The notes: generated by a model not told the origin, from the sequence alone. A stretch of DNA of 64,000 nt from Candidatus Nealsonbacteria bacterium (GCA_003551845.1 PUNQ01000032.1:23414-87413); one strand, 5' to 3'. Shown: positions 15,137 through 63,221, counted from the stretch's first letter. A program made the numbers and translations.

Positions 15137-15207
15137 TGCGGGATGGTGTAATGGTAACACGCCGGGTTCTGGTCCCGGTAATCCAGGTTCGAGTCCCGGT
15201 CCCGCAG
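15137..15207 (+). tRNA. tRNA-Gln (anticodon CTG).
   Basis: Cloverleaf with a U1-A72 acceptor (TGCGGGA/TCCCGCA), anticodon stem CCGGG/CCCGG with loop TTCTGGT, and T-loop TTCGAGT with one A.C mismatch in the T-stem. Confidence 0.7.
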
Positions 15208-15266
15208 CAAAGCTGTAAAATTAATTTCAGAATTCAACTCTTGAATAAGATAAAACAAGTTTTCAT

Positions 15267-16328
15267 ATGGCATTACCGAGTTATTCATTTTTGCTGAAAT
15301 ATTTATTATCCAAAAAAGTGAGAGCTCCGATCTACTTGATTTTTGAGCCGACTGCAAGGTGCAATTCAAATTGTTCTTTTTGCTACAACAAGGAGAAGTT
15401 AAACGAATCCGAAGAAATGAAAGCGGAGGAGATAGATCTTTTTACGAGAAAGATGGACAAATTGCTCACCCTGGCACTTAGTGGTGGAGAACCTTTTTTA
15501 AGAGAAGATCTGTCGGAAGTGGTTGAAATATTTTCAAAAAATGTGGATATGGAATACTTGATCATACCCACGAACGGATTATTACCCGATCTGATTAAGG
15601 AAAAAACTTTACGAATAATCGACAAATATGAAAAAAAATTGATAGTGACTCTTTCTCTTGACGGCTTGCATCAAAAACATGATGAAATAAGGGGGGTTGA
15701 AGGAAATTTTGAAAGACTCTTGGAAACTTATGATAACTTGTCGGCGATCGATGAGGATAATTTGGAGATATCGGTTAACACCTGCCTGAATTCGTCGAAT
15801 AAAGAAGAATTCGTTGAAATTCGTGAATTTGTAAGAAAAAGAATGCCGAAAACAAAAGCTCATAACTTTTCTTTCATGAGAGGGAGTTTTCCGGATAGCG
15901 ATTTGAAGGAAGTTGATCTCGATTTCGTAAAAAAGAATAAAGAGGAATTGCAAAAAACGGCAATTGGAAGCAGGGAGTTTTCATTTGATCCTTACGGGTC
16001 GTTTTTGAAAGCGATAAGAGCGGAATATTACTCCGTTTATGAAAATAATCAAGGTAATGAGCGAAACTGGGATTGTTATGCGGGCAACTTGGCTTGTTAC
16101 ATCGACTTTAAAGGCAATCTTTATCCCTGTGAATCACTTCCTCCAATCGGCAATTTGGAGGATTACGATTATCAATTTGAAGATTTGTGGTTTTCGGAAG
16201 TCGCCTCCGGAGTCAGGAAAGGGATAAAGGATGGAAAATGCAATTGTAATCATGGCTGCTTCGTTAAGCTCAGTTTAATGTTCAATCTCAAAATTTACCC
16301 CAAATTAATTAGGCATGTCGGAAAATAA
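15267..16328 (+). CDS. Radical SAM protein with a C-terminal SPASM/twitch-type Cys-rich domain.
   Basis: A CxxxCxxC motif (CNSNCSFC) follows a GGEP motif. The C-terminal cysteines are CYAGNLAC...C...CNCNHGC. Confidence 0.65.
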   Translation: MALPSYSFLLKYLLSKKVRAPIYLIFEPTARCNSNCSFCYNKEKLNESEEMKAEEIDLFTRKMDKLLTLALSGGEPFLREDLSEVVEIFSKNVDMEYLIIPTNGLLPDLIKEKTLRIIDKYEKKLIVTLSLDGLHQKHDEIRGVEGNFERLLETYDNLSAIDEDNLEISVNTCLNSSNKEEFVEIREFVRKRMPKTKAHNFSFMRGSFPDSDLKEVDLDFVKKNKEELQKTAIGSREFSFDPYGSFLKAIRAEYYSVYENNQGNERNWDCYAGNLACYIDFKGNLYPCESLPPIGNLEDYDYQFEDLWFSEVASGVRKGIKDGKCNCNHGCFVKLSLMFNLKIYPKLIRHVGK

Positions 16329-17307
16329 ACCGAAGGTTAAAATTGTGGTACCGCTCGTAGAAATTGATGATTATGCGATTGAGTGCATCAAAAAAATAGG
16401 TAAAATCGATTATGATAATTGGGATCTAATTTTGATTACGGATAAGCGGATAAAAGAAAGCTTTGAAAAAACCGAAATTATCGTCAGTGGTAATTTGACC
16501 ATAGGAGCAAAAAGAAATCTGGCCATTGAAAAATACAAGGAGGATGCGGACTTTTTTGCTTTTATCGATTCCGATGCATTTCCGGAAAAGTCCTGGATTA
16601 CTGAAGCTATCGGAAAGTTTATCGGTGAAGATCTTGACCCGGCAGCAGTCGGAGGACCCAATTTATTGCCTCCGGATTCCGGTTGGAGAGAAGTTTGCGC
16701 GTCCAATGCCATAAGCTCCCCGGTTATTTCCGGATTCAACTCCTTCTATTACAAAAAAGAAAAGAGCAGGCATGTCGACAAATTACCGACTTGCAATTTG
16801 ATCGTCAAAGCTTCGGTTTTTGATCAAGTGGGTCTTTTCAATGAAAGCTTGGTAACGGGTGAGGACAAAGAATTTTGTCAACGAATCGTTGAAAATCAAA
16901 AGAAAATTCTATATTCACAAGACGTAATTGTTTATCATCACAGAAGAAAGCTCTGGATGCCGTTTTTTAAGCAGAGATTCGTTTATGGATCGGGAATAGT
17001 TGAAAAGATCGGGCTCGGGTTGAATGAAGATAAGGCTCATTTAATTATTCCTCCACTCACAACTCTTTATTTTCCGGCGGGTTTTTGGATTAGCCGGGTT
17101 TCGGATACGGGAAGACTTTTTTTCATCATCACTGTTTTAGTTCTTTTAATCGTTTTTATTTTTGAAGCGGCAAGAAATTCAAAAAAAATTATTCATATTC
17201 CACCGACTTTTTTTGCAATACTCATCTCTTTTTTCATGCCCGGACTCGGCTTTTACTTTAGATTAATCGGGGGTTTTGATTTTAAAAAATTATATCGAAG
17301 ACGATAG
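16315..17307 (+). CDS. Family 2 glycosyltransferase with C-terminal TM helices.
   Basis: A GT-A fold is indicated by ILITDKR and FIDSDAF (DxD-like). The start overlaps the stop of the radical SAM gene. Confidence 0.6.
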   Translation: MSENKPKVKIVVPLVEIDDYAIECIKKIGKIDYDNWDLILITDKRIKESFEKTEIIVSGNLTIGAKRNLAIEKYKEDADFFAFIDSDAFPEKSWITEAIGKFIGEDLDPAAVGGPNLLPPDSGWREVCASNAISSPVISGFNSFYYKKEKSRHVDKLPTCNLIVKASVFDQVGLFNESLVTGEDKEFCQRIVENQKKILYSQDVIVYHHRRKLWMPFFKQRFVYGSGIVEKIGLGLNEDKAHLIIPPLTTLYFPAGFWISRVSDTGRLFFIITVLVLLIVFIFEAARNSKKIIHIPPTFFAILISFFMPGLGFYFRLIGGFDFKKLYRRR

Positions 17308-17390
17308 AGGATGCAACTTTTCTTTTTTGTCGAGAGGCAAGAAGTGGTGATTTGATTTTTAATTAATAGTAGTTATAATAATTAAGCTTT

Positions 17391-17461
17391 TGCGGGATGG
17401 TGTAATGGTAACACGCCTGGTTTTGGTCCAGGTAATCCAGGTTCGAGTCCTGGTCCCGCAG
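17391..17461 (+). tRNA. tRNA-Gln (anticodon TTG).
   Basis: Near-identical to the 15137 copy, with compensatory changes in the anticodon stem (CCTGG/CCAGG), loop TTTTGGT, and a perfect T-stem (CCAGG/CCTGG). Confidence 0.75.
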
Positions 17462-17470
17462 CATAAAAAG

Positions 17471-21108: not shown

Positions 21109-22314
21109 ATGGAGAATATTAAAGTTTTAATGTTCGGTTGGGAGCTGCCACCTGAAAACAGCGGTGGGCTGGGGGTCGCCTGTTTGGGACTATCCAAAAA
21201 ACTGAACCAAAAAGGAGTTGATATTACATTCGTGGTTCCGCGAAAAACCGAAGCAATGAAGAATAATTTTTTCAATTTGCTTTCCGCGGATATAAATTAT
21301 AAGGAGATTGAAGTAAAATCATCTCTTTCTCCCTATCTTTCGCCTCAAAAATATAAAAGTATTCTCAGAGAAGAAAAAGATATATACGGAAAAACTCTTT
21401 TTGAGGAAGTTTCCAGGTATAGAAAATGTGCTCGAAAAATAGCGCTTTTTGAAAATTTCGACGTTATTCATGCCCATGATTGGCTCTCCTTCGGTGCGGG
21501 AGTGGAGGCCAAGAAGATAACCGGAAAGCCGTTGATAGCGCATGTCCATGCCACCGAATTCGATCGTGGGGGAGGGACTGGCGTGGATGAACGGGTCTAT
21601 CGGCGTGAAAAAGAAGGTTTGGAGATGGCGGATAAGATAATTGCGGTCAGTAATTACACCAAAAACATAATCGTTGAAAAATACGGAATTCCGGAAACCA
21701 AGGTAGAAGTTGCTTATAACGGAGTAGATTTAAAAGAAAAGCCGGCCGGAAAAAAGATTTTGGAAGCATTTCAGGAAGCGGGCTACAAGATTGTTCTCTT
21801 TGTCGGCAGATTAACCATACAGAAGGGCCCCGATTATTTTTTGCAAGCGGCTCGAAAAGTTTTGGATCACAGTGATGATGTTATATTCGTGGTCGCGGGA
21901 TCCGGTGATATGGAAGAGCAGATTATAAGACAGGCCTCGGAACTCGGAATTTCCGACAAAGTTTTATTTCCGGGATTCATAAGAGGAAAAGATCTTCACA
22001 GCTTATATAAATCGGCCGATTTATTTATAATGCCCTCGGTTTCCGAACCCTTCGGCCTTACGCCCTTGGAGTCTCTGATAAATGGAACACCGGTTCTGGT
22101 TTCCAAACAATCGGGAGTTTCCGAAGTGTTGACACACGCTTTGAAAGTTGATTTTTGGGATGTTGAAGAGATGGCCAATAAGATATTATCCACTTTGAAT
22201 CATGATTGCTTGAAGACGTGTCTTTCGGAAAACGGAAAAAAAGAAGTCGGTGGCATAACTTGGGATTTTGCCGCTGACAAATGCATTTCAGTTTACAAAT
22301 CATTAATGAAATAA
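21109..22314 (+). CDS. Family 4 glycosyltransferase (alpha-glucan/glycogen synthase-like).
   Basis: A GT-B fold is indicated by EPFGLTPLESLINGTPVL (an EX7E-like region), preceded by an AGGAGG ribosome-binding site. Confidence 0.6.
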   Translation: MENIKVLMFGWELPPENSGGLGVACLGLSKKLNQKGVDITFVVPRKTEAMKNNFFNLLSADINYKEIEVKSSLSPYLSPQKYKSILREEKDIYGKTLFEEVSRYRKCARKIALFENFDVIHAHDWLSFGAGVEAKKITGKPLIAHVHATEFDRGGGTGVDERVYRREKEGLEMADKIIAVSNYTKNIIVEKYGIPETKVEVAYNGVDLKEKPAGKKILEAFQEAGYKIVLFVGRLTIQKGPDYFLQAARKVLDHSDDVIFVVAGSGDMEEQIIRQASELGISDKVLFPGFIRGKDLHSLYKSADLFIMPSVSEPFGLTPLESLINGTPVLVSKQSGVSEVLTHALKVDFWDVEEMANKILSTLNHDCLKTCLSENGKKEVGGITWDFAADKCISVYKSLMK

Positions 22315-22318
22315 AAAA

Positions 22319-23530
22319 ATGCCTTCGGTTTGTTTCTATTTTCAAGTTCATCAACCCTTCAGAGTGAAAAAATACAGATATTTCGATATAGGAAAGGATC
22401 ATGACTACTTCAATGAAAAAGGAGACAATGATTTGAACAATGAAAAAATCATGAAGAAGGTGGCTCGGAAATCATATTTACCCACCAATCAAGTTTTATT
22501 GGATCTTTTAGAAGAAGAACCCGAATTCAAGATAAGCTTTTCTTTCTCCGGAGTGGCTCTGGAGCAGATGGAAAAGTATGCTCCGGAAGTGATAGACTCT
22601 TTTCAAAAGCTGGTGGATACCGGAAGAGTGGAGATTTTAGCCGAAACCTATTATCATTCATTGGCGTTTCTTTATTCCAAAGAAGAGTTCAGAAAACAGG
22701 TTGAACTTCATGAGAAAAAAATAAATGAAATTTTTGACTATCAGCCCAAAATTTTTCGGGGAACGGAACTTTCTTACAGCAATGATCTGGCCGAAGAGGT
22801 TGAAGATATGGGTTATGAAGGAATTTTAACCGAAGGAGTAGACAGGATTTTGGGTTGGCGTAGCCCCAATTTCTTGTATTCTCCAAAGGGCTCCGATATA
22901 GCGCTTTTTTTAAAAAACTATAAGCTTTCGGACGATATAGCGTTTCGATTTTCAAGCAAGGGATGGAAGGAGCATCCTCTTACGGCTCCAAAGTTTGCTC
23001 GGTGGGTGTCCGCAATAAACGGCAACGGAGAAGTTGTTAATCTTTTCATGGATTATGAAACTTTCGGAGAACATCAATGGGAATCGACCGGTATATTCAA
23101 TTTTTTAAGATCCTTGCCGTCTGAAATTCTAAAGCATCCGGACAATAATTTTTTAACTCTGAGAGAAGCTGTCGAAAGGTATGATCGAGTTGCCGAGTTG
23201 GATATTCCTTACTTTATTTCTTGGGCTGACAGCGAACGGGATTTATCCGCTTGGATCGGTAACCCGATGCAAAGAGATATGTTGAATAAATTGTATGATC
23301 TCGAGGAAGATGTTTTGCGAACGGGAGATGAAAAGCTTATCGATAAGTGGAGAAAATTACAAACTTCGGATCATTTTTATTATATTTGCACAAAGACTCT
23401 TTCTGACGGGACGGTTCATAATTATTTCAGTCCGTACGAGTCTCCGTATGAGGCGTTTATATCTTATGCAAATGCGTTGAATGATTTTAGATTGGAAATT
23501 AAAAATAAAGCAAAAAAGGCCGAAGCATAA
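22319..23530 (+). CDS. Glycoside hydrolase family 57 protein.
   Basis: The N-terminus FYFQVHQPFR carries the GH57 signature HQP, with a TIM-like catalytic region. Confidence 0.65.
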   Translation: MPSVCFYFQVHQPFRVKKYRYFDIGKDHDYFNEKGDNDLNNEKIMKKVARKSYLPTNQVLLDLLEEEPEFKISFSFSGVALEQMEKYAPEVIDSFQKLVDTGRVEILAETYYHSLAFLYSKEEFRKQVELHEKKINEIFDYQPKIFRGTELSYSNDLAEEVEDMGYEGILTEGVDRILGWRSPNFLYSPKGSDIALFLKNYKLSDDIAFRFSSKGWKEHPLTAPKFARWVSAINGNGEVVNLFMDYETFGEHQWESTGIFNFLRSLPSEILKHPDNNFLTLREAVERYDRVAELDIPYFISWADSERDLSAWIGNPMQRDMLNKLYDLEEDVLRTGDEKLIDKWRKLQTSDHFYYICTKTLSDGTVHNYFSPYESPYEAFISYANALNDFRLEIKNKAKKAEA

Positions 23531-23535
23531 AATAA

Positions 23536-25356
23536 GTGCTCGGATCAAAAAAAATGGAAAAGGAAAAAGTTAAAGCGGATTATCTCTTCGAGGTTTCTTA
23601 TGAAATCTGCAATAAGGTGGGTGGGATATACAGAGTTTTGGAATCCAAGGCAGACAATATGATTGAGAGATACGGAATCGATAATTACTTTTTGATAGGC
23701 CCTTATTATTTGGAAAGCTCAAAAGGGGAGTTTAAAAAAGAAACTCCGAACGGGAAGTTAAGACAGGCTTTTGATGAGTTGGAAAAAGATGTAATTCATT
23801 GCCATTATGGAAAATGGATGGTCAAGGGAAGACCTAAAACGATTTTGGTTGATTTCAGGGATTTTTTTGCCCAAAAGAATAACATCAAAAAGAATTTGTG
23901 GGAAAACTACGGAATCGATTCTTTGAATGCGGGAATTACCTTTGAAGAGCCGGTTGTCTGGTCTTGGGCGGTCGGAAAGGTGATTGAAAAAGTGGGAGAA
24001 ACAATTTCCGATGACAAGGAAAAGATGGTTGCTCATTTTCATGAGTGGCTTTCGGGAGCGGGATTGCTTTACTTAAATCAAAGTGAGCTTGACATAGGAA
24101 CGGTTTTTACCACCCATGCTACGAGCTTGGGGAGGTCGTTGGCATATAACAATATCGATTTTTACAATCAGTTTGAAGGAATAAATTCTTCGGAAGCGGC
24201 TTATGAAAACGGTGTTCACCCCAAACATCAGATGGAAAAAAGAGTCGCCCTGAATGCGGACGTATTTACCACGGTCAGTGAAATAACCGCCCTGGAAGCG
24301 GAAAAGTTTTTAGATCGCCGACCGGATATTATTTTACCCAACGGATTGGATTTGGAAAAATTTTTAACTTTTGAAGAAATTGTAATTAAGCACAGATTGC
24401 AAAGAAGGAGGTTGAGAGAATTCGTAATATCCTTCTTTTTTCCTTATTATCGATTCGATATCGAAGACACTCTTTTCTATTTCATAATCGGTCGTAATGA
24501 ATACAAAGCTAAAGGCGTCGATATATTTATAAAGTCTTTGGCCGAATTGAATCGAAGAATGAAAGAAAACGGCACTGAAAAAACGATAGTAGCCTTTTTC
24601 TGGATTCCGACCGAAGTTCGATCCGTAAAAAGTGAGATGGTGGAAAACAGAGAATTATTCCAAGATATTAAAGATTCTTTATCCGAAGCGATGCCGGAAA
24701 TTGAAGAGAAGATTCTTTACAATTTACTTTATGAAGACGACCTTGCAACTGAAAAGATAATAAGTGAAAATTATCTTTTTGAAATTGAAAGAAAATTGTT
24801 ATCCTTAAACAAGGAAAGCGAAAACCCGCCCATTTCCACACACGAATTAATGGATCAAGATGATAAAATTTTGAAAACGATCAGGGATTATGGGCTAAAT
24901 AATAAAAAAGAGGACAGAGTAAAGGTAATTTACTATCCGATCTATTTGACCGGCCATGACGGACTTTCCAACCTTGACTACCAAGAAGCCTTGGAGGCTT
25001 GTCATCTGGGTGTTTTCCCCAGCTTTTATGAGCCTTGGGGGTATACTCCTTTGGAAGCGGCGGCTCTGGGAGTCGCCTCGGTTACCACCGATTTGGCAGG
25101 ATTCGGCAGATTCAGGCAAGATATGGAAAAGAAAGATGGAAAAGAGGGGGTATACGTATTGGAAAGATATAAGCGGAAAGATGAAAAAATAGTTTCCGAT
25201 TTGTCGGAACTGATGTATAATTTTTCCAAATTCAATAGAAAAGAAAGGGTCGATAACAAGATTGAAGCGAGAAAGATAGCCGCAAAGGCGGATTGGAAAG
25301 ATTTCGTCAACCATTACGTGAAGGCTCAAAACGAATCAATTCAAAATGAAAGTTAA
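23536..25356 (+). CDS. Glycogen (starch) synthase, GT3 eukaryotic-type family.
   Basis: The N-terminus LFEVSYEICNKVGGIYRVLESKA matches the GT3 glycogen synthase signature (FEvaWEVaNKVGGIYTVl). The true start may be at 23554. Confidence 0.6.
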   Translation: MLGSKKMEKEKVKADYLFEVSYEICNKVGGIYRVLESKADNMIERYGIDNYFLIGPYYLESSKGEFKKETPNGKLRQAFDELEKDVIHCHYGKWMVKGRPKTILVDFRDFFAQKNNIKKNLWENYGIDSLNAGITFEEPVVWSWAVGKVIEKVGETISDDKEKMVAHFHEWLSGAGLLYLNQSELDIGTVFTTHATSLGRSLAYNNIDFYNQFEGINSSEAAYENGVHPKHQMEKRVALNADVFTTVSEITALEAEKFLDRRPDIILPNGLDLEKFLTFEEIVIKHRLQRRRLREFVISFFFPYYRFDIEDTLFYFIIGRNEYKAKGVDIFIKSLAELNRRMKENGTEKTIVAFFWIPTEVRSVKSEMVENRELFQDIKDSLSEAMPEIEEKILYNLLYEDDLATEKIISENYLFEIERKLLSLNKESENPPISTHELMDQDDKILKTIRDYGLNNKKEDRVKVIYYPIYLTGHDGLSNLDYQEALEACHLGVFPSFYEPWGYTPLEAAALGVASVTTDLAGFGRFRQDMEKKDGKEGVYVLERYKRKDEKIVSDLSELMYNFSKFNRKERVDNKIEARKIAAKADWKDFVNHYVKAQNESIQNES

Positions 25357-27043
25357 ACATATATTAAAAAACAATCAATGGGTGAAAGAAGTGGATGAGA
25401 GAACCTCCTTTCTTTTGGGAAATAAAATCGGTGATTATCTTTGGCTTTCCGATAATCCGGAGAGCAGATATCAGGGGTGGTTCGTAACACCGCCGAATCA
25501 GAATGGGGGTGAGATATACAAAGTTATCGAGGATATACGTCCGGTGGGAAGAAATAGAATTGAAACGGTGGAAAATTATTTTTCAAAAGTCAGAAGAAAA
25601 GGTGATGGATTCGAAGAGACTTTCATCGTTTCCGAAAATGAACACAAAATGAGGTATCAGCTGAAAGAGGATTCGGAAGTTGAATTGATTTTGGACATGC
25701 GACACTCTTACAGCAATGCTTATCCGGAATACATAATAGAGTGGATTGACGACAAGCTGCTGATAAAAACCGGGGGAGAAGACGATTTCTTTTTAGCGAT
25801 CAAGGGGTTCGAATCGGTTGATTTAATCAGAGAGCGGTTCGTGCGACATTATTCGATTGATAAAAAGAGAAACTCTCCTCCTTTTGAAAAAGCTGTTTTT
25901 AAAGCTTTAAGTATGAGAGGTAAAGACTTCTTTTTTTCCGCATCCGAAAACAGGGAAGAGGCTTTAAATCAATTGGACACAAAAACAGAAGCAAATTTAC
26001 CCGAAGAAGAAAAAGAGCCGGTTGATTTTGTGGCGGCAAAAAAAGGATTGTCCGATTTGTCGGTTAACGGCAGGGGGATATATGCGGGATATCCTTGGTT
26101 TTTCCAATTTTGGAAGAGAGATGAAGCAATTTCTCTGAGAGGGCTTAGAATAATCGATCCGGAAAAAGCGGAAAAATTATTTTGGTCTCTTTTGGAAGAA
26201 GACAAAAGTTGCCCTGCGGGAAAGGCGTTTGACGGAGTAGGCTGGACTTTCAAGAGAGCATTTCTTTTTCTGAATGATTTTAATCAAGAAGAAGAAAAAG
26301 CCTTGGCTGATTTTCTGCGAAAGGAAGTTGATTTTGAGAAATCCGACGAATTAACCGTTAACGGCAATAAAGAAACATGGATGGACTCAATTCCGAGAGA
26401 AGGGGCCAGGATAGAAATTCAGGCCTTAAAGCTGAATATGTATAAATTGGGTAGGCTGATCGATCCGGAAAAGCAGGATAAATATCAATCGATGGAGTCC
26501 GAATTAAAGAAAAAAGTAAGAAGCATTTTTTGGGACGGCAATATTTTGGCGGACGGTTATTTTCCGAAAAAAGGAGTGGTGGACAAAACCGTCAGGCCCA
26601 ATATCTTTTTAGCTTATTATATATATCCGGATCTTTTGAGTGAAAAAGAATGGGTGACTTGCTTCAGAAGAGCTCTTTATGAATTATGGCTCGATTGGGG
26701 TGGATTGGCAAGCATCAGCAAAGAGAGCCCTCGCTTCAACAGTCGGCATACCGGAGAGAATCCTCAAAGCTATCATCAAGGAGACAGCTGGTTTTTTGTG
26801 AATAATTTAGCCGCAATATCAATGAACAGGTTGGATGATGGAAAATTTTCATATGAGATTAAAAAAATACTTGAAGCGAGTCGAGAAAATTTAATGTGGA
26901 AAGGAGCTGTGGGCCATCATAGTGAGATAAGCTCGGCCGAAATACTGAAATCGGAAGGTGCGGTCAGTCAGGCTTGGAGCTTCGCAACCTATTTGGAAGC
27001 ACTTTATGAAATATTTAAAATAAATAATTTCAGCTGGAGTTAA
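25346..27043 (+). CDS. Amylo-alpha-1,6-glucosidase (glycogen debranching enzyme C-terminal domain, GH133-like).
   Basis: GYPWFFQFWKRDEAISLRG corresponds to the GDE catalytic region GlPWF..WGRD. It shares a glucan cluster with GT3, GH57 and GT4. Confidence 0.6.
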   Translation: MKVKHILKNNQWVKEVDERTSFLLGNKIGDYLWLSDNPESRYQGWFVTPPNQNGGEIYKVIEDIRPVGRNRIETVENYFSKVRRKGDGFEETFIVSENEHKMRYQLKEDSEVELILDMRHSYSNAYPEYIIEWIDDKLLIKTGGEDDFFLAIKGFESVDLIRERFVRHYSIDKKRNSPPFEKAVFKALSMRGKDFFFSASENREEALNQLDTKTEANLPEEEKEPVDFVAAKKGLSDLSVNGRGIYAGYPWFFQFWKRDEAISLRGLRIIDPEKAEKLFWSLLEEDKSCPAGKAFDGVGWTFKRAFLFLNDFNQEEEKALADFLRKEVDFEKSDELTVNGNKETWMDSIPREGARIEIQALKLNMYKLGRLIDPEKQDKYQSMESELKKKVRSIFWDGNILADGYFPKKGVVDKTVRPNIFLAYYIYPDLLSEKEWVTCFRRALYELWLDWGGLASISKESPRFNSRHTGENPQSYHQGDSWFFVNNLAAISMNRLDDGKFSYEIKKILEASRENLMWKGAVGHHSEISSAEILKSEGAVSQAWSFATYLEALYEIFKINNFSWS

Positions 27044-28293
27044 AGAGTTTCTACAATTCTTTTAATGCCGGACATAAGGGAAGAATCATATTCTTCTCGT
27101 TTTATTTTTTGAGCAGCGTACAAGGCGTTAAGGGGTTTGGTTTCTTTTTTCTGGTATTTTTGAGGATAATTTTCTTCCAGGCAGCCGTTCAATACGAATA
27201 TTTTTTCGGATTTTAAAAGTTCTTTTTTCTTTTTTTTGCTCGCCTCTTTGTTTTTAAACTTTTTATTCCAATAACGATCAATTCCGTCTTCATCAATCAT
27301 TACTATATAGGGCATATTGAATATTTTACAAATCTCTTCATAAAGATCGATATTGCCGATTCCTCCGCAATAAACCACTTTTATGTCCGTAGTTTTGTTA
27401 TGAAATCTGTCAATTAGACCTCTGAGCAAGATACTGTCGGAGACACCCTCTACGAGAACCACCTTGTCGGCAAAAAGCATTGCCGAATTATCATCGTTTA
27501 TCTCTTGAACCAAGCGATCTTTTGGAATCGAGCGACCCTTCTGAAAACTACAAACGGAAGTGCTGTTATTTTTATTTCTGGATACTCGCCAAACCTTATC
27601 CAAGAGTTTGGCCTGGACAAAAGTGGGGTGATGGGTGGTAAGAAAGATTTGGTTTTCCGGATTTCTATTTTGCAATATTTTTAAAAATTTTTTTATCACC
27701 GAAGGATGAAGATGTAATTCCGGTTCGTCTATAAGGATTATCTCGTAGTCGGGATTGTAAATATAAAAAAGAATCACAAAAAGCCTTTTGAAGCCGTCTC
27801 CCATTCTGTTTAGCGCTTTTTCTTTTTCGGAGCTCATTTCCGCCTCGAAGAGCTTTTCATCGATCTGAATGTTCTGAAAATATTTTTTTATGGTTTTAAC
27901 AAAATCCCGATATGCTTCATTATGCTCTCGCTTGAAGAGGTCTAAATTTTCAGCTAAGATTTTTTTTAAAGCGGGAGAGTGACTGATTCGTATTACTTTC
28001 TCTTTCATCTTTTCATATTTTTTTTTGGAAAATTGATAGTCGAGGGTCTTGCCGGAATAGTGGAGGCTACACTTTTCGGATTCATGAGTCAGGTTCAATC
28101 TGAGATTAAATTCACCCTCGCTCCTTTTTAATTTTTCATTATCGGGATTGAAAAATATTTCAATCGAATCCAGTAAATTGGTTTTTCCGGCGTTGTTGGG
28201 ACCGACCAAAATATGGAGATCGGAAAAATTATCCATTTCAATCGACTCAATAACGCTTTTATAATTTTTAATCTGAATTTTTTTTATTTTCAT
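27040..28293 (-). CDS. OLD-family ATP-dependent endonuclease (N-terminal ABC-type ATPase fused to a C-terminal Toprim), class 1 standalone.
   Basis: A Walker A (GPNNAGKTNL) and DEPELHLHP (Walker B plus the LHP signature of the AAA_15/OLD family) sit in the N-terminal half. The C-terminal Toprim reads VLVEGVSDSILL...IDEDG. The start is set at MKIKKIQIKNYKSV (ATG at 28293). Confidence 0.7.
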   Translation of the reverse strand: MKIKKIQIKNYKSVIESIEMDNFSDLHILVGPNNAGKTNLLDSIEIFFNPDNEKLKRSEGEFNLRLNLTHESEKCSLHYSGKTLDYQFSKKKYEKMKEKVIRISHSPALKKILAENLDLFKREHNEAYRDFVKTIKKYFQNIQIDEKLFEAEMSSEKEKALNRMGDGFKRLFVILFYIYNPDYEIILIDEPELHLHPSVIKKFLKILQNRNPENQIFLTTHHPTFVQAKLLDKVWRVSRNKNNSTSVCSFQKGRSIPKDRLVQEINDDNSAMLFADKVVLVEGVSDSILLRGLIDRFHNKTTDIKVVYCGGIGNIDLYEEICKIFNMPYIVMIDEDGIDRYWNKKFKNKEASKKKKKELLKSEKIFVLNGCLEENYPQKYQKKETKPLNALYAAQKIKREEYDSSLMSGIKRIVETL

Positions 28294-28300
28294 TTGATCA

Positions 28301-28351
28301 TTATAGCATTTGGAATGATTATTTGACAAAATTTTTTTTTAAACTTATAAT
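28301..28351. promoter_or_regulatory. Back-to-back divergent promoters sharing a -35 region.
   Basis: On the plus strand, TTGACA (28323-28328), a 17-nt spacer and TATAAT (28346-28351) precede the 28385 gene. On the minus strand, TTGTCA (the complement of 28324-28329), a 17-nt spacer and TATAAT (the complement of 28301-28306) sit only ~8 nt from the OLD start codon, which hints at a leaderless mRNA. Confidence 0.45.
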
Positions 28352-28384
28352 AGCGGCGAAAAGGAAAAGAGGGGGTGAACAAAA

Positions 28385-28867
28385 ATGCAAATTAAAAATT
28401 TATCGGTCGCGGAGAAGTCTTCAAATGAAGTGGGGGCGCTCAATTTTTATTATCGGGGAGAAAAGATAGTTAATTTGTCTGAAACGGTCAGGCCTCTGGA
28501 TACGTTCATTACGGCCGTTCCTCTTTATATAAAGGGGACTGACTCAGTAGTAATCGACATTAAAAAGTACGATCAGGTGATAGTTTCCAATGGCGAAGAA
28601 TTCACCTCGAAGGCTTATGTTATCGGAATGGCTCCACATGAAGGGGAGATTATTGAAAGAAGAATTTCTCTTTCCGAAGCCAAATCGGTAAAAATATTCT
28701 TAGCTCAGCTGAGCAAGAACAAAGATAAAGAAGATATCGGCTTGCGCATTATCGGATTCGGAGTCTTTCATTTGGTTTTATATTATAAAAAAGAAGCGAG
28801 CATGAATTTACAGCGACCGGATTACATGAAAAAAAAGAGGCATTGCTTTAATCGTGACAGCCTATAA
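28385..28867 (+). CDS. Hypothetical protein (160 aa) divergent from the OLD nuclease.
   Basis: ORF with a strong GGGGGTGA Shine-Dalgarno sequence and a consensus promoter; no recognisable domain. Confidence 0.45.
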   Translation: MQIKNLSVAEKSSNEVGALNFYYRGEKIVNLSETVRPLDTFITAVPLYIKGTDSVVIDIKKYDQVIVSNGEEFTSKAYVIGMAPHEGEIIERRISLSEAKSVKIFLAQLSKNKDKEDIGLRIIGFGVFHLVLYYKKEASMNLQRPDYMKKKRHCFNRDSL

Positions 28868-28888
28868 TGGTGGCACCCTCTAAAAATT

Positions 28889-28911
28889 TGCGCCCGGAAG
28901 GGCGCTTTTTC
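28889..28911 (+). terminator. Rho-independent terminator.
   Basis: GCGCCC-GGAA-GGGCGC is followed by TTTTT. Confidence 0.6.
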
Positions 28912-29030
28912 TTATTTTTCCAATTTGCAAAATCAATTTAATTTTTATATACTTACAAGCGAACAGTTGTTAAAATCAAATCAACAAATCAAATAAAATA
29001 AAAGGTCGAATAAATTAAGAAATCGATAAA

Positions 29031-29345
29031 ATGGATAAAAAAACAGTTCTCATAGTGGTCGTATTGGTGATAGCTTTAATTGCTATTTTGGCGGTAGTTT
29101 TCAGTGAACAGGTTGAGGATCCCGAAGATATCGACCCCGATCTCAATGATATAGAAGATCCCTTCGACGACGAAGACTTGGAAGATCCCTTCGACGACGA
29201 AGACTTGGAAGATCCCTTCGACGACGAAGACTTGGAAGATCCCTTAGAGGAGGAGGAAGAAGAGGAAGAAGATGAAGAAGAAGAGGAAGAAGAAGAGGAG
29301 GAAGATGAAGAAGATGAAGAAGAAGAGGAAGAGCTTGAGTACTAA
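29031..29345 (+). CDS. Membrane-anchored, highly acidic repeat protein (EDPFDDEDL x3 plus a poly-Glu tail).
   Basis: An N-terminal TM helix, a 27-bp perfect tandem repeat and a GAA/GAG-rich tail. Confidence 0.5.
   Translation: MDKKTVLIVVVLVIALIAILAVVFSEQVEDPEDIDPDLNDIEDPFDDEDLEDPFDDEDLEDPFDDEDLEDPLEEEEEEEEDEEEEEEEEEEDEEDEEEEEELEY
29145..29237 (+). repeat. Perfect 27-bp tandem repeat (~3.4 copies) within a coding sequence.
   Basis: GAAGATCCCTTCGACGACGAAGACTTG is repeated identically three times with a partial fourth copy, and is followed by a GAA/GAG microsatellite-like tract (29238-29330). Confidence 0.85.
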
Positions 29346-33867: not shown

Positions 33868-33896
33868 ATTAGTTTTATTTTTGCTATAATCAAGCA

Positions 33897-34223
33897 ATGG
33901 TAATGCGATTCAAAGAAATAATTAAAGAAATAGGGGAGGCCGGAAAAAGAACGGAAACGGTTAAGATTTATTATTCGGAAACCGAAACGAAAAAAGAGGG
34001 ATGGAGAGAAGTAGAGCCTTACAGTTTGTCAACGGATATCCCTCCCGACGGTGAATTTTTGGTGTACGGAAAAGATCACATAAGACCGGGGCACATCTTG
34101 AATGCTTATAATGTGGGCTCCGGCGACAAAACGGCCCACTCTTTCATTCTGGGAAAGATAAGAAAAGCTAAGAGAACGGGAAAAAGTTTTGAAGGAAGGG
34201 AAAAGTGGCCGGTTAAATTTTGA
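33897..34223 (+). CDS. Small WYL-like (Sm-fold ligand-binding) domain protein (tentative).
   Basis: The pattern VKIYYSE...GWREVEPYSL...EFLVYGKDH...HSFILGKIRKA resembles the WYL-domain consensus (..Y.s..g..R.veP..l...wyl.a.d...r.Frl.RI). It has its own TATAAT at 33883 and is first in a coupled three-gene unit. Confidence 0.35.
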   Translation: MVMRFKEIIKEIGEAGKRTETVKIYYSETETKKEGWREVEPYSLSTDIPPDGEFLVYGKDHIRPGHILNAYNVGSGDKTAHSFILGKIRKAKRTGKSFEGREKWPVKF

Positions 34224-34227
34224 AAAT

Positions 34228-34914
34228 ATGGATTATGATACAAAAAAACCGGAGGAGGTTGAAGAATTAACTGAAAAAGAAGATAAGAGCTTATTTACCA
34301 AAGTCGGAAAGGCCGTCGTTGCTTTGGTTTTGGCGCTGACTTTAATTTATTTTTCCGGTTTGAGAGAATACTTCTTTTTTGATAGAACCTCTCCGGATTT
34401 GGAGGTCGCCGAGATTGAATCGGCTTTTGAATTGGAAGTCGTGGAGATACCGATTAATGTTCTGATAATACGTGAGCCGGTCTCCGGATCTCAGAGAGAT
34501 TCGGAAGAAGTTGAGATTTTGATCCAAAATACTTCCAATTTGTTAAATCAAGCGGATTTGGAATTAAAAAAAACGAATTTTTATGAGGAGGAGCTCGAAA
34601 GGGAAGAAGTTTCGGAGATCTTAAGTGGCAATTTCCTTTTTTTGGAAAAATTAAGCAATAGGGAAATAAATTTAATTTTAGTGAGGACTTTGAGGGGCCT
34701 CAACGGAGTTGCATACCCGAGCAGAAACACTATCATAATTCCTGACTATACGGCGGGTAGAGATTACAGAACTTTTGCACATGAAGTCGGGCACATTCTG
34801 GGTCTCGGACATGTCGATGATCCGAGATACGTAATGAGTCAGGGAGAGAGAGGAGTTTTGTTTTCGGAAGAAGAAATCATAAAGATGAGACAAATTGCGG
34901 ATGAAAAATTTTAA
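34228..34914 (+). CDS. Membrane-anchored metzincin-type zinc metallopeptidase.
   Basis: HEVGHILGLGH (HExxHxxGxxH) with a downstream Met-turn (YVMS), and an N-terminal TM helix. The gene is 4 nt after the WYL-like gene and overlaps the helicase start by 14 nt. Confidence 0.6.
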   Translation: MDYDTKKPEEVEELTEKEDKSLFTKVGKAVVALVLALTLIYFSGLREYFFFDRTSPDLEVAEIESAFELEVVEIPINVLIIREPVSGSQRDSEEVEILIQNTSNLLNQADLELKKTNFYEEELEREEVSEILSGNFLFLEKLSNREINLILVRTLRGLNGVAYPSRNTIIIPDYTAGRDYRTFAHEVGHILGLGHVDDPRYVMSQGERGVLFSEEEIIKMRQIADEKF

Positions 34915-37900
34915 AAATAGCTATTCCAGACTCAATGAAGAGCAAAAAAGGGCCGTTGACAAGATTGACGGACCTTTAATGGTGGTTGCCGGGCCGGGTT
35001 CGGGGAAAACGGAGCTTTTGGCCGTCAGAGCGGCCAATATAATGAAAAAGAAGGATATTCCGGCCGGGAGCCTGCTTTGCTTAACTTTTACTGATGCAGC
35101 CGCTCTGAACATGAAGGAGAGATTAGCGGATATGATAGGGGACGAAGGCTATAGAGTTCAGGTTTTTACTTTTCACGGTTTTTGTAAAGAGATTATCAAC
35201 AACAACCCGGAATATTTTTATAAGGGAGCTGATTTTGATTTGGCTGATGAAATTGTCAAAACTGAAATTTTGGAAGAAATTTTAGCGGACCTGGATTATG
35301 ACGATCCTTTGAGTGGTCGACATCCTTCTTTGGGGTATGTTTATTTAAAACCTTTGAAAAGAATTATTCCCGAACTTAAGAAAGAAGGAATTACTCCCGT
35401 AGAGATGGAGAGAGCTCTTGAAGCCAATGAAAAAATCATAAAGAAAATAAATCCGCTTATTAGTGATGTCTTCAGTCAAAGAGTGTCCGACTCAATCAGG
35501 ATGGATATAAAAAAGCTGATAGATCAGTTAAAGGATATTGATGCTGATTTTCCGCTGGATCGATATGACCCGTTGAGCAAAGTGATCATCAAATCTTTGG
35601 AAAGAGCGCTTGATGGAGAAAAAACAAAGAAGATAACGGCATGGAAAAATAATTGGACCAAAAAGAAAAACGAAAAGAGAATTTTGAAGGATAATTATTA
35701 TCTGGATAAGCATAAGAGCTTGGCTCGGGTATATGCGAAGTATGAAAAAAAGAAATATGAAAGAGGACTTTATGATTTTTCCGATATGGTTTTGGATGTC
35801 ATAAAGGTTTTGGAGAAAAACGAAAGCCTACGTTACGATCTTCAGGAGAAATATCTATACATAATGGTGGATGAATTCCAAGACACAAGTGGAGTTCAAA
35901 TGAGGCTTATTAAAAATTTAACCGTAGACGAGCCACACGGAAAGCCGAATATTTGTGTGGTAGGCGATGACGACCAAGCCATTTACAGGTTTCAAGGAGC
36001 TGAAATTTCGAACATATTGAATTTCAAAACATCATATGAAGATGTTGAGGTGATTACTTTGAAGAAAAATTACAGGTCGGGACAAAGAATTTTGGATTCG
36101 GCTAAAAAAGTTATCACCCGGGGAGAAGAAAGACTTGAGGCGATATTGGAAGAAGTGGACAAAGATTTGATATCGATGAAAAGCGATGAAGAAGAAACGA
36201 TAGAAGCGAAAAGCTTTAAAACCAAGGAGGAGGAATATTCTCATGTTGCCCGAAAGGTAAAGTCGTTGATTGAAAAGGGAACAGATCCCCGGGAGATAGC
36301 GGTTATGGGCAGAAAGCATAAGATATTGAAAGAGATAGCTCCTTATTTTGCCGATCTTTCGATTCCGGTTTATGCGGAAAGAAAAGTAAACGTATTGGAA
36401 AATGAAGTGGTTCGACAGGTGGTTCGGATAATTCGTTTTGCGGATTATCTTTTAACCGGCGACAAAGATAAGGCGGATGAACTTTTACCTGAAATTTTAA
36501 GTTATCCTTTTTGGGGTTTGGAAAGGAAAAAGGTTTGGAAATTGGCTCGACGATCATATAAAAAAAGAAATTCTTGGTTTGAAGAGATGAAAGGTGACGA
36601 AGATCTTGAGAGGATTCAACTTTTTTTATCCGATTTAGCCCAAAAATCAAAATATAAAACTGCTCGGGAGATGATTGATTTGGTTGTAGGGAATAAAAGT
36701 GGATCTATTCGCAGCCCCCTAAAAAAATATTATTTCGGGGAAGAAAAATTGAAAAAAAATACAGCTGAATATTTTAAATTTTTATCCGCATTGAAAAGAT
36801 TTACCAACGCTCTGGAAAATTACAAAGAAGGCGAATTTTTGAAAGCGGATGATCTGTTGGATTTTTTTGACAGACATTTGGAAAACAATATACCGATAAA
36901 CGATACCAATCCTTTAATTACCGATTCGGAATCCGTTTCTTTAATGACTGCACATAGTGGAAAGGGGAGAGAGTTCGAAGCGGTTTTTATTTTGAGTTGC
37001 CAGCAAGAAATTTGGGCACGGGGAGGTAGAGGTAGAAGATTACCTTTTCCGTCCAACATACCACTTAAAATTTCGGAAACCGAAGATGATCACTTACGAC
37101 TTTTTTATGTAGCTTTGACCAGGGCAAAAAGCTTTCTTTCGATTACTTCTCATCGAAAAAAGCAGAACGGTAGAGGATATTCGTCCCTCGAATTTATCAG
37201 CCATTTCGATTCGGAGGATTCTTCCGCTGAAATAGGGTATGAAGAGATGGAATCTTCAAGAAAAGATTATTATTCTCCACCATTCGAGGTTACCGAAAGG
37301 CAGGTATTGATGCCGCTTGTTTCCGATTACATGCTCAGTCCGACCGGATTGAATAAATATCTTAATGTTGCCGATGAAGGACCGGAAGCTTTTTTGAAAG
37401 ATACCTTACTCAGATTTCCGGCTAAAAAGCATCCGGGTGCAGCCAACGGGACGGCGGTCCACCAAACGATAAGTTGGATCTACAATGAAGTTAAGTCAAA
37501 AGAAAAACCACCCGAAACAGGGGAAGTTTTAGAAATTTTTGAGAAATTTTTGAGAAAGCAGAGGCTGTCTGAAGATAATTTTGAAAAATATCTTAAAAAA
37601 AGCAAAAAAGCTTTGGAAAACTTTTATGAAGAAAGAAAGGAAAGCTTCGATTCGGATCATTTGATTGAAAAGGGGTTTAAAAATCAAGGAGTGGTAATTT
37701 CAGGTCAAAAAATCACCGGAAAGATAGATAAAATAGAGATGGACGGGTCGATTTTGGAGGTGACCGATTTTAAGACGGGTAGCCCGATTGAAAGCTGGAA
37801 TCCCTCCGGCACATATAGTAAAATAAAAGCATGGAAATATAAAAATCAATTGATATTTTATAAGCTACTTATAGAAAACTCCGCTGATTTTAAAGGAGCT

Positions 37901-38122
37901 GAAGTAAAAAAGGGATGGCTGGAATTTATTGAACCCACCGATGACGATAAACGGATAAGATTATCTCTTGAGATAAAAAAAGAAGACGTAGAGAGGCTGA
38001 AGCAATTGATAGAGATCGTCGGAAACAGAATAAAGAATCTTAATTTTTCGATTGATGACGACTATGAAAAAAAATCGGTGAAAGAAATTGAAAAGTTTGA
38101 AAAAAAATTATTAAAAACGTAA
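34901..38122 (+). CDS. UvrD/PcrA-family SF1 helicase fused to a C-terminal PD-(D/E)xK (RecB-like) nuclease domain.
   Basis: Helicase motifs I (GPGSGKTE), II (DEFQDTSG), III (VVGDDDQAIYRFQGA), V (HSGKGREFE) and VI (RLFYVALTRAK) are all present. The C-terminal GKIDKIEMDGSILEVTDFKTG...QLIFYKLL is a RecB/AddA-like nuclease motif. Confidence 0.75.
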   Translation: MKNFKNSYSRLNEEQKRAVDKIDGPLMVVAGPGSGKTELLAVRAANIMKKKDIPAGSLLCLTFTDAAALNMKERLADMIGDEGYRVQVFTFHGFCKEIINNNPEYFYKGADFDLADEIVKTEILEEILADLDYDDPLSGRHPSLGYVYLKPLKRIIPELKKEGITPVEMERALEANEKIIKKINPLISDVFSQRVSDSIRMDIKKLIDQLKDIDADFPLDRYDPLSKVIIKSLERALDGEKTKKITAWKNNWTKKKNEKRILKDNYYLDKHKSLARVYAKYEKKKYERGLYDFSDMVLDVIKVLEKNESLRYDLQEKYLYIMVDEFQDTSGVQMRLIKNLTVDEPHGKPNICVVGDDDQAIYRFQGAEISNILNFKTSYEDVEVITLKKNYRSGQRILDSAKKVITRGEERLEAILEEVDKDLISMKSDEEETIEAKSFKTKEEEYSHVARKVKSLIEKGTDPREIAVMGRKHKILKEIAPYFADLSIPVYAERKVNVLENEVVRQVVRIIRFADYLLTGDKDKADELLPEILSYPFWGLERKKVWKLARRSYKKRNSWFEEMKGDEDLERIQLFLSDLAQKSKYKTAREMIDLVVGNKSGSIRSPLKKYYFGEEKLKKNTAEYFKFLSALKRFTNALENYKEGEFLKADDLLDFFDRHLENNIPINDTNPLITDSESVSLMTAHSGKGREFEAVFILSCQQEIWARGGRGRRLPFPSNIPLKISETEDDHLRLFYVALTRAKSFLSITSHRKKQNGRGYSSLEFISHFDSEDSSAEIGYEEMESSRKDYYSPPFEVTERQVLMPLVSDYMLSPTGLNKYLNVADEGPEAFLKDTLLRFPAKKHPGAANGTAVHQTISWIYNEVKSKEKPPETGEVLEIFEKFLRKQRLSEDNFEKYLKKSKKALENFYEERKESFDSDHLIEKGFKNQGVVISGQKITGKIDKIEMDGSILEVTDFKTGSPIESWNPSGTYSKIKAWKYKNQLIFYKLLIENSADFKGAEVKKGWLEFIEPTDDDKRIRLSLEIKKEDVERLKQLIEIVGNRIKNLNFSIDDDYEKKSVKEIEKFEKKLLKT

Positions 38123-62423: not shown

Positions 62424-63152
62424 CTACTCATTATCAATCTTGATGTGCTCGTATCTTTCGTTGATCTCAATTTCACTTTCTTCAAAGATCTTTTTCAATC
62501 TTTTTTCAAAAAGATCTTCCGTTTTCCTATCGATGAAAAATTCTTTTCCGTAGGGGTGTTTTAAAAATTCTTCTTTCCCCATATTTTCAACTTCCGGACC
62601 GAATCTTTCAATCGCTTCTTTGAATTTATCTTTTAGAAATTCTTTTGAAAATTTTTCTTCTCGGTATTTTCTTTCGGCGGTTTCTTCAATGTTTTTCATT
62701 ATTTTATTGTAGTGCATCTCTGTCCTTAAGTCCTGCTCCATCTCGGCGGGAGTCCTTTTTAAAAATTCGGCCATTCTTTCTATTATCTCCTTTGTAGTTG
62801 CATCCTTCCCCAATGGGTTGATATCAGGATGAGGTCCTAAAATTAAGGATTCGCTCCGACGCACACTTTTTCTGAAATCTTCATCGCTAAACTTCAAGCC
62901 GATTTCTTCCGTCATCAGGTTTAAAGCCCTTGCATTGACAAAGGCGGAGAAGACGGAATTTTTAATTTCTCTTTTTTGTTCTTCGTCTGCCGGCTCCTTA
63001 ATCTCAACTCTTCTTTCGAATTCCGTTATTTCAACCTTTTCTTCATTGAATCTGATTGCAAATTCTTGAGAGCTTGCTTGAGGACTTATTAAAAAGATGG
63101 AGCTTATAATAAAAATAAAAAGAGCTAATCTCTTCACTAAAATCACCTCCAT
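62424..63152 (-). CDS. Hypothetical exported protein (N-terminal signal/anchor).
   Basis: ORF with an N-terminal hydrophobic segment; charged and helical. Confidence 0.35.
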   Translation of the reverse strand: MEVILVKRLALFIFIISSIFLISPQASSQEFAIRFNEEKVEITEFERRVEIKEPADEEQKREIKNSVFSAFVNARALNLMTEEIGLKFSDEDFRKSVRRSESLILGPHPDINPLGKDATTKEIIERMAEFLKRTPAEMEQDLRTEMHYNKIMKNIEETAERKYREEKFSKEFLKDKFKEAIERFGPEVENMGKEEFLKHPYGKEFFIDRKTEDLFEKRLKKIFEESEIEINERYEHIKIDNE

Positions 63153-63221
63153 TTACATTATAAAATTAAAATTAGATTATGTCAAGTAGAAAGCCCCGTT
63201 AGTTTAACGGGGCGCTTTGAA

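Follow-up and report, generated by a model that had tools for sequence, protein, structure and literature searches.

OLD-family nucleases nick or cleave DNA, as described for Ts OLD (Thermus scotoductus, PDB 6p74), V. cholerae OLD, GajA and Cran1, or cut tRNA, as described for P2 Old and PARIS AriB (PMC7049728, PMC12392090, PMC12796447, PMC12445682, PMC12409363). Annotation pipelines and defence-finding tools treat these nucleases as anti-phage genes. E. coli YbjD is a class 1 OLD encoded in the core genome; its deletion has no phage phenotype and its induced expression gives anti-phage phenotypes (PMC13261556). Cran1, a class 5 OLD of the Sulfolobales, is monomeric, essential and tied to cell-cycle progression rather than to antiviral defence (PMC12796447). 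Class 5 was defined in an OLD phylogeny based on RefSeq (PMC12796447), and RefSeq as a basis may under-sample uncultivated Patescibacteria. Here we analysed an OLD-family ATPase-Toprim gene that is located in a 64,000-nucleotide stretch of DNA from Candidatus Nealsonbacteria bacterium (GCA_003551845.1 PUNQ01000032.1:23414-87413; the whole stretch is called the window in the following).

The gene is located at window positions 27040-28293 on the minus strand, counted from the ATG, and encodes a protein of 417 amino acids (aa). Judged from its homologues, it belongs to a discrete clade of compact OLDs that is confined to Patescibacteria as far as sampled; it is no truncated singleton. The enzyme type itself is familiar. 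New here are that the protein is compact, that the clade is restricted to one phylum and inherited in strict synteny, and that the leaderless-type start is conserved; a literature search found no description of this compact Patescibacteria OLD clade. Defence genes usually show the reverse of this inheritance pattern, which resembles that of the archaeal Cran1, singled out for such conservation, and that of the core-chromosome YbjD. We see about an even chance that the gene is a resident one, fixed in the chromosome, whose role is cellular or dual, rather than a mobile defence-island gene. A resident function is favoured because of the fixed position, the co-divergence with the neighbouring genes, the host-matched GC content and the absence of viral copies and defence neighbours. 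The features of the OLD gene are the following.

27040..28293, minus strand: OLD coding sequence (open reading frame (ORF), Pfam, PADLOC, AlphaFold2 (AF2) model, Foldseek)
28180..28203, minus strand: Walker A / P-loop GPNNAGKT, residues 31-38 (invariant in 32 homologues; alignment to 6p74)
27814..27978, minus strand: short variable helical insertion in the ATPase, residues ~106-160 (helices of the AF2 model; spacing compared with Ts OLD)
27703..27741, minus strand: Walker B and D-loop, residues 185-197 (IILIDEPELHLHP) (homologue alignment; mapping onto Ts OLD)
27130..27477, minus strand: Toprim nuclease domain, residues 273-388 (PF20469 over 273-336; mapping onto Ts OLD)
27040..27043, no strand assigned: TTAA in which the stop codons of GDE_C and OLD, two convergent genes, overlap (ORF ends)

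The longest OLD reading frame begins with a TTG at 28329, 12 codons upstream of the ATG. The ATG was taken as the start, since the methionine of MKI.. is the first residue in 31/31 aligned homologues. The initial annotation had assigned the protein to the OLD family based on its Walker A motif, DEPELHLHP and the Toprim sequence IDEDG, and had pointed out that no UvrD helicase is adjacent. The motifs are present as described (GPNNAGKTN at residues 31-39, IDEPELHLHP at 188-197, VLVEGVSD at 279-286 and IDEDG at 333-337), and the nearest UvrD-type gene (34895-38122, plus strand) is 6.6 kb and seven genes away from the OLD gene. The family assignment was confirmed with Pfam, where AAA_15 (1.3e-26) and AAA_21 (7.6e-24) match above their gathering scores and OLD-like_TOPRIM (PF20469) matches residues 273-336 (1.7e-14, 54.5 bits with a cut-off of 23.2), and with PADLOC, where the top model is Old (1.6e-34), followed by the ATPase-Toprim, GajA and AriA models. 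The AriA profiles cover the ATPase part only. NCBIfam matches were sub-threshold (retron Eco8 effector NF038234, 82 bits vs. a cut-off of 250; RecF, 32 vs. 172), and weak N-terminal matches to SMC_N, RecF and ABC_tran are limited to the P-loop region.

Residues of Ts OLD that were defined experimentally (PMC7049728) were carried over to the window protein by alignment. The P-loop lysine K37 corresponds to Ts OLD K34, and the K34A exchange in Ts OLD abolishes ATPase activity (PMC7049728). The Walker B pair D189/E190 corresponds to E276/E277, the D-loop histidine H196 to H283 and the H-loop histidine H221 to H310. Both sets of Toprim metal ligands are present in the alignment: E282/D334/D336 (metal A) match Ts OLD E377/D431/D433, and D286/C371/E373 (metal B) match D381/S478/E480. 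E282, D334, D336, D286 and E373 are invariant among 32 homologues. Altogether, the mapped ATPase and metal residues are invariant or nearly so in these homologues, with the exception of Walker B D189 and of the C371 position (Ts S478), which is occupied by S, T, D or C across the family. The nuclease site of Ts OLD is completed by a basic residue, R487 (Bp K562), located 7 residues past E480 in the loop before a helix. Candidate equivalents are K379, which is K or R in ~26/32 homologues, and the invariant K386, just before helix 386-396; K386-P387-L388 is an invariant stretch within the Toprim region. By this mapping the protein is an ABC ATPase fused to a Toprim two-metal nuclease, with a predicted catalytic set that is intact.

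A profile of the 32 homologues was compared with solved structures and matched 6p74 best (E = 4e-26), followed by GajA, retron-associated ATPases, PtuA and AriA; the single OLD sequence as query gave the same order. The AF2 model calculated from the 32-sequence alignment (predicted local distance difference test, pLDDT, 88; predicted template modelling score, pTM, 0.87) was compared with the PDB using Foldseek, which likewise returned 6p74 first (E = 2.8e-21), with GajA and the OLD of retron Eco8 next. SMC and Rad50 heads were also among the fold matches, ranked lower. The modelled fold is of the class 1 OLD type. Compared with Ts OLD, the window OLD has 111 aa less. Walker A and Walker B are separated by 152 aa (K37-D189) compared to 242 aa in Ts OLD (K34-E276), therefore the four-helix dimerization insertion of class 1 is reduced, with ~90 residues lost. 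Its remnant in the model consists of short helices (109-123, 125-138 and 146-154) and a low-confidence loop (153-161). The Toprim part is also compact, with 37 aa between D336 and E373 (47 aa in Ts OLD) and 44 residues after E373; it has neither the helical insertion of class 2 nor a C-terminal helical domain. An R-M-G-x-G-F motif is conserved 22 aa before Walker B, at the place of the ABC signature. Least conserved are the beta lobe and the helical insertion (residues 56-160), with 17-27% identity vs. 50-67% in the catalytic cores; the mean identity in the stretch of the helical insertion is 27%. In terms of sequence conservation, beta lobe and insertion are natural candidates for the recognition of a substrate or signal.

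A search of 5.8 billion clustered proteins yielded 679 matches, of which the best 120 are full-length, about 386-449 aa long and 37-58% identical. The named members among these best 120 of 679 come from metagenome-assembled genomes (MAGs) of Patescibacteria, for instance Komeilibacteria. Close relatives among the species-representative matches listed are titled Nealsonbacteria, Paceibacterota, Parcubacteria and Saccharibacteria, these taxon names being taken from record titles or protein names alone. Three MAG loci (L016, L018, L020) carry the label uncultured Gammaproteobacteria, a provisional assignment; their neighbouring genes are shared with unlabelled metagenome loci.

The position of the OLD gene is fixed over large evolutionary distances. 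In the window it faces a glycogen cluster (21109-27043, plus strand) comprising GT4, GH57, glycogen synthase (PF05693, a family that includes eukaryotic enzymes) and the GDE_C debranching enzyme (amylo-1,6-glucosidase), and this cluster is syntenic in Nealsonbacteria-like genomes of soda-lake sediment metagenomes. OLD is located tail-to-tail with GDE_C in relatives at 56-58% and also in those at 44-48% OLD identity, and the junction is usually the same 4-bp overlap of the stop codons or a gap of 2-85 bp. The genes on the far side (Germane, SIMPL, NuoF-like and FeFe-hydrogenase) are syntenic in the relatives as well. Pairwise identities between 15 distinct lineages are strongly correlated for OLD and GDE_C (r = 0.88) and for OLD and glycogen synthase (r = 0.92), comparable to the correlation between GDE_C and glycogen synthase (r = 0.90; Mantel permutation 0/2000). 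The mean pairwise identity across these lineages is 0.55 for OLD, 0.48 for GDE_C and 0.66 for glycogen synthase. In 52 loci spanning 26-52% GC, the GC content of OLD tracks that of the flanks (r = 0.95) with a constant offset of -2.4%. The 3-4% GC dip of the window OLD was considered as a sign of recent acquisition, which was ruled out by this family-wide offset. It had been suggested initially that the locus, lying between the glycogen cluster and a block of acidic hypothetical genes, might be an accessory pocket; the syntenic junction and flanks, the co-divergence of OLD with its neighbours and the lack of defence neighbours in the window speak against this.

OLD members at 31-45% identity are found in other contexts, which are stable for each subclade and consist of housekeeping genes. 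The arrangement dual-specificity phosphatase-OLD-mnmA-alaS was found in 10 loci with gaps of -4 to 110 nt, DUF6938-OLD-EamA transporter in 8 loci and metG-OLD-GT2 glycosyltransferase in 3 loci; a further context is MacB/FtsX followed by OLD. The compact OLD is thus packed beside genes for tRNA thiolation and aminoacylation in two other subclades (OLD-mnmA-alaS in L009, L130, L135-L138, L140, L147, L152 and L154; metG-OLD in L151, L153 and L155). Neither a defence gene nor an integrase or helicase adjoins OLD in any context examined (~60 related loci for the helicase). No relatives were found in 2.9 million viral contigs of IMG/VR, and a comparison with 50,697 phage genomes gave four partial matches only (26-31% identity).

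OLD and a divergent gene coding for a 160-aa protein are separated by 91 bp. The initial annotation had described back-to-back consensus promoters with a shared -35 region in this intergenic region, and a start for OLD that is suggestive of a leaderless transcript. Both descriptions hold at the sequence level: the region contains two near-consensus sigma-70 promoters, whose -35 hexamers overlap by 5 bp.

28300..28329, minus strand: putative OLD promoter with -35 TTGTCA (28329-28324), 18-nt spacer, extended -10 TG and TATAAT (28305-28300) (11/12 matches)
28323..28351, plus strand: putative promoter of the 160-aa gene, TTGACA-17-TATAAT (12/12 matches, perfect consensus)

Perfect TTGACA-N16-18-TATAAT elements occur twice in the 64-kb window, with 0.04 expected. 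The TATAAT of OLD ends 6 nt ahead of the ATG, and therefore the usual start site falls on the A of the ATG; a Shine-Dalgarno motif is not present ahead of this ATG. The 75 nt upstream of every distinct OLD gene were listed. TATAAT or TATACT ends 6-7 nt before the ATG, without a Shine-Dalgarno motif, in many loci of both context groups, and the remaining upstream sequence is unconserved among homologous loci. We then applied the same rule to all genes in the loci, namely a perfect TATAAT ending 5-8 nt before the ATG. Such leaderless-type starts were found for 14/66 OLD genes and for 11/648 other genes (odds ratio 15.6, Fisher p = 2e-9), and the result was similar for genes with an upstream gap of at least 40 nt (12/39 vs. 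10/356; odds ratio 15.4, p = 5e-8). Kinship among the loci inflates the significance of the Fisher tests; the pattern nonetheless spans differing contexts and 31-58% protein identity. The leaderless-type start, enriched ~15-fold, thus appears as a trait of the compact OLD family. Leaderless initiation seems to be open to this organism and to be used preferentially for OLD. Shine-Dalgarno motifs are rare ahead of the ~63 mechanically called ORFs in the window, and the one of the 160-aa gene is among the strongest.

Similar start geometries were observed elsewhere in the window. A 108-aa ORF (33897-34223, plus strand) without Pfam match has TATAAT-N6-ATG, with the element starting at 33885, which is the same geometry as for OLD. 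The other perfect TTGACA-N17-TATAAT (63157-63185, minus strand) has its TATAAT ending 4 nt before the ATG of a 242-aa ORF (62424-63152, minus strand), a candidate for a very short or absent leader. At the 3' side of OLD, the lone terminator-like hairpin for the glycogen operon (27078-27098, plus strand) is located inside the OLD coding region, and a scan of 26800-29200 predicted no terminator-like site on the minus strand just past the OLD stop codon. Therefore, the transcripts of GDE_C and OLD should overlap. The TTAA formed by the two stop codons is palindromic, and the tight junction is kept in relatives.

The initial annotation had described the 160-aa protein as lacking a recognisable domain and as preceded by a very strong Shine-Dalgarno sequence, and had suggested that it could be an antitoxin or partner of OLD. 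Its features are given here.

28385..28867, plus strand: 160-aa protein, mostly beta (ORF; alignment of the five-member family)
28369..28378, plus strand: Shine-Dalgarno sequence GAGGGGGTGA of the 160-aa gene, 6 nt before the ATG (sequence)
28890..28913, plus strand: intrinsic-terminator-like GC-rich hairpin GCGCCCGGAAGGGCGC with T-run, 3' of the 160-aa gene (terminator scan)

By these sequence features the ORF is a real gene, because it has a consensus promoter, a Shine-Dalgarno motif, a terminator, a 97% identical copy elsewhere and full-length, frame-preserving homologues. Two homologues are full-length with 41% and 36% identity, and two more were found at ~24% by profile search. HMMER, run exhaustively over 1.84 billion representative proteins, returned 3 matches; the family is therefore tiny and fast-evolving. 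It comprises five lineages, which all have the gene divergent from an OLD gene (one OLD is cut by the contig end). All five belong to the closest OLD subclade (52-58% OLD identity), where the whole region is syntenic, and the 160-aa proteins are 24-41% identical where the OLDs are 52-58% identical. Beside OLDs of 48% identity or less the gene is absent, in the GDE_C context as well as in others, and the slot is taken by a 77-aa ORF or by a gene for an inositol monophosphatase or an SNF transporter. The 160-aa protein had no match in Pfam, PADLOC or NCBIfam; a match to ScpB (E = 0.004) was far below the cut-off and was rejected. The AF2 prediction is mostly beta (pLDDT 77), with 2/5 models folded, and Foldseek against the PDB found nothing better than E = 0.07 (TM < 0.25). 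The lack of a recognisable domain was thus confirmed, and the suggested partnership was not, given a distribution of five lineages and the absence beside more distant OLDs. The gene is probably a young lineage-specific neighbour that shares the promoter region and is not a required partner; an accessory regulatory role is possible.

The 5' coding ends of OLD (..IQIKN) and of the small gene (MQIKN) contain a 23-nt inverted repeat (28263-28285 / 28378-28400) that is 87% complementary, and the homologues of the 160-aa protein likewise begin with M-x-I-K-N/K. The repeat could stem from an ancient inverted duplication of the 5' end of OLD, or be a chance occurrence in AT-rich DNA; at 23 nt, we do not find it convincing as evidence of a duplication.

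The window as a whole is core chromosome, encoding DnaB, CysRS, MraW, Ddl, a penicillin-binding protein, ExoVII, RmuC, DinB and ClpB. The PADLOC profiles detected only UvrD-type helicases and a ClpB-like ATPase over the window, Rfam found nothing beyond three tRNAs, and the window contains no reverse-transcriptase domain, integrase or retron features. The UvrD-type gene at 34895-38122 codes for a 1075-aa AddA-like protein with a UvrD helicase and a PD-(D/E)XK nuclease; it and the second UvrD-type helicase of the window match the PADLOC GajB profiles, as strongly as 2e-90. Downstream of the 160-aa gene, a 104-aa protein is encoded (29031-29345, plus strand) that has a hydrophobic helix at its N-terminus and a tail that is extremely acidic, made up of 27-nt tandem repeats (EDPFDDEDL, 3-4 copies) followed by poly-Glu. 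Its lone Pfam match, to a SpoIIIAH-like model, is weak and sub-threshold. At 15137-17462, two tRNA-Gln genes (anticodons CTG and TTG) are located on either side of genes for a radical-SAM/SPASM protein and a GT2 glycosyltransferase.

In the proposed mechanism, a sigma-70 promoter of its own would give OLD a leaderless mRNA and thereby low constitutive expression without a Shine-Dalgarno motif. The ABC head would bind and hydrolyse ATP and control the Toprim nuclease, as for the characterised OLDs, and the R-M-G-x-G-F motif suggests an ATP-sandwich engagement of the heads. The nuclease would then nick DNA or cut a structured RNA such as tRNA. A cellular role, non-defence or dual, is slightly more likely than pure phage defence; candidate roles would be genome or nucleic-acid maintenance, as for the archaeal Cran1, or that of a permanently retained innate nuclease. 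In a bolder version, which we regard as tentative and place below even chances, the compact OLDs of Patescibacteria would form a class of their own with vertical inheritance, a bacterial counterpart of Cran1 that was recruited from defence to a cellular task and is expressed from a conserved leaderless transcript. They might nick DNA in repair, replication or the cell cycle, or act in the processing or quality control of tRNA. The arrays OLD-mnmA-alaS and metG-OLD are noteworthy because P2 Old and AriB cut tRNA; they hint at tRNA as the substrate, which is a weak lead and might be due to chance.

Several observations weigh against a resident cellular function. The characterised bacterial OLDs (P2 Old, V. 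cholerae OLD, GajA, retron Eco8 and PARIS) all act in phage defence, and Old of PADLOC is the best-scoring profile for the window protein. The compact family does not occur throughout Patescibacteria, with a few hundred clusters at 90% identity; a wider occurrence would be expected of a strictly essential housekeeping gene. Furthermore, the loci were gathered by OLD similarity, so that glycogen clusters without OLD are outside the sample, and the variable residues 56-160 fit a fast-evolving sensor surface. The gene might therefore be a classical stand-alone class 1 OLD nuclease for anti-phage defence or abortive infection, present at a low level, whose nicking of DNA or cutting of tRNA is set off by a phage signal; this we consider a serious possibility of less than even probability. 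Such a function agrees with the top profile and structure matches, which are defence OLDs, with a single gene that needs no helicase and has its predicted catalytic residues intact, with a variable region that could be the sensor, and with a leaderless low-level expression that would suit a potentially toxic gene. Genomes of the candidate phyla radiation (CPR) are reportedly under intense phage pressure (PMC12259885), and the core-genome YbjD is anti-phage when induced (PMC13261556). However, the synteny and the co-divergence with metabolic neighbours are maintained over deep divergence, the GC content is host-matched, defence-island neighbours are missing in the contexts examined, IMG/VR holds no relatives and OLD evolves more slowly than the neighbouring GDE_C.

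The other explanations are far less probable. OLD and the 160-aa protein could form a two-gene system, with the latter as antitoxin, inhibitor or specificity partner, coupled via the shared promoter region: its gene is divergent beside OLD in all five lineages, the overlap of the -35 hexamers could mean that use of one promoter excludes use of the other, and the protein evolves faster than OLD. We regard this as improbable, since the gene is missing beside every OLD of 48% identity or less and adjacency is uninformative, because the whole region is syntenic in the five lineages; in addition, the protein has no recognisable domain or fold, and OLDs with this neighbour and OLDs lacking it show the same conservation of catalytic and surface motifs. 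The locus could also be a class 2 (Gabija-like) or class 3 (retron) system in disguise, with its partner elsewhere in the window. This would be in line with the strong GajB matches of the two UvrD-type helicases, one of them 6.6 kb away, and is very improbable. GajB profiles match any UvrD-type helicase and by themselves over-call Gabija, the nearer helicase is AddA-like and separated from OLD by seven unrelated genes and the divergent promoter, and no helicase is located beside OLD in ~60 loci; the retron version is contradicted by the low Eco8 effector score and the lack of a reverse transcriptase or an msr-msd match in the window. That the protein is no OLD at all, being an ordinary ABC-transporter ATPase or a housekeeping ATPase of the SMC/RecF/Rad50 type, is the least credible explanation. 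It could account for the weak SMC_N, RecF and ABC_tran matches and for the SMC and Rad50 heads low in the fold search. These matches are confined to the P-loop region, with RecF at 32 bits vs. 172 and ABC_tran below its gathering score, and the explanation is contradicted by the C-terminal Toprim domain with its OLD-specific profile and full set of metal ligands and by the full-length match to 6p74.

A short, phylum-confined clade that has core synteny and co-evolves with metabolic genes would be either an innate nuclease that is fixed over the long term, in which it would differ from most defence genes, or a case of domestication for a cellular function, which has recent precedent in one archaeal OLD. 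Either outcome would refine the reading of defensome counts in Patescibacteria. The protein, a minimal OLD that has lost almost all of its dimerization insertion, would be useful for studying how the ATPase controls the Toprim nuclease, and the conserved leaderless-type start is a concrete, testable regulatory feature in a phylum whose expression signals are poorly known.

Compared with the described classes, the window protein is an OLD-family member that is nearest to class 1 (Ts OLD, P2 Old, V. cholerae OLD and E. coli YbjD/OldB). The initial classification as a standalone class 1 OLD is right in that no helicase is adjacent, 6p74 is the best match by sequence and fold, and the Toprim has no large helical insertion and no C-terminal helical domain. 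It does not extend to the length and the full dimerization domain: class 1 proteins are typically about 520-590 aa long, the window OLD is ~110-170 aa shorter, and the four-helix dimerization insertion is down to ~45 variable residues. Identity to Ts OLD is ~17% in the structural alignment. The ABC signature is degenerate in class 1, whereas the window family keeps the signature-like R-M-G-x-G-F. The clade also differs from class 1 in its restriction to Patescibacteria, its vertical inheritance, its fixed synteny and its conserved leaderless-type start. With YbjD it has in common that the gene is convergent to an unrelated gene in the core chromosome.

The defining features of classes 2-5 are missing in the window protein. 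GajA (class 2) is similar in its ATPase-Toprim architecture, in significant sequence and fold matches and in an SG-x-G-like signature motif; the difference is that no GajB helicase is adjacent to the window OLD. Retron Eco8 (class 3) and PARIS (class 4) have a homologous ATPase core, but Eco8 is associated with a non-coding RNA and a reverse transcriptase, and PARIS is split into AriA and AriB, whereas the window OLD is fused in one chain of 417 aa. Its scores are well under the cut-offs of these families. Cran1 (class 5), to which the window OLD was compared by description, is archaeal, has an alpha-helical insertion in its Toprim and is encoded in a conserved operon with a membrane protein, in contrast to the class 1-like Toprim of the window OLD, which has no conserved operon partner. 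Like Cran1, the window OLD is compact, has intact sites, is located outside defence systems and is conserved in its lineage without signs of horizontal transfer.

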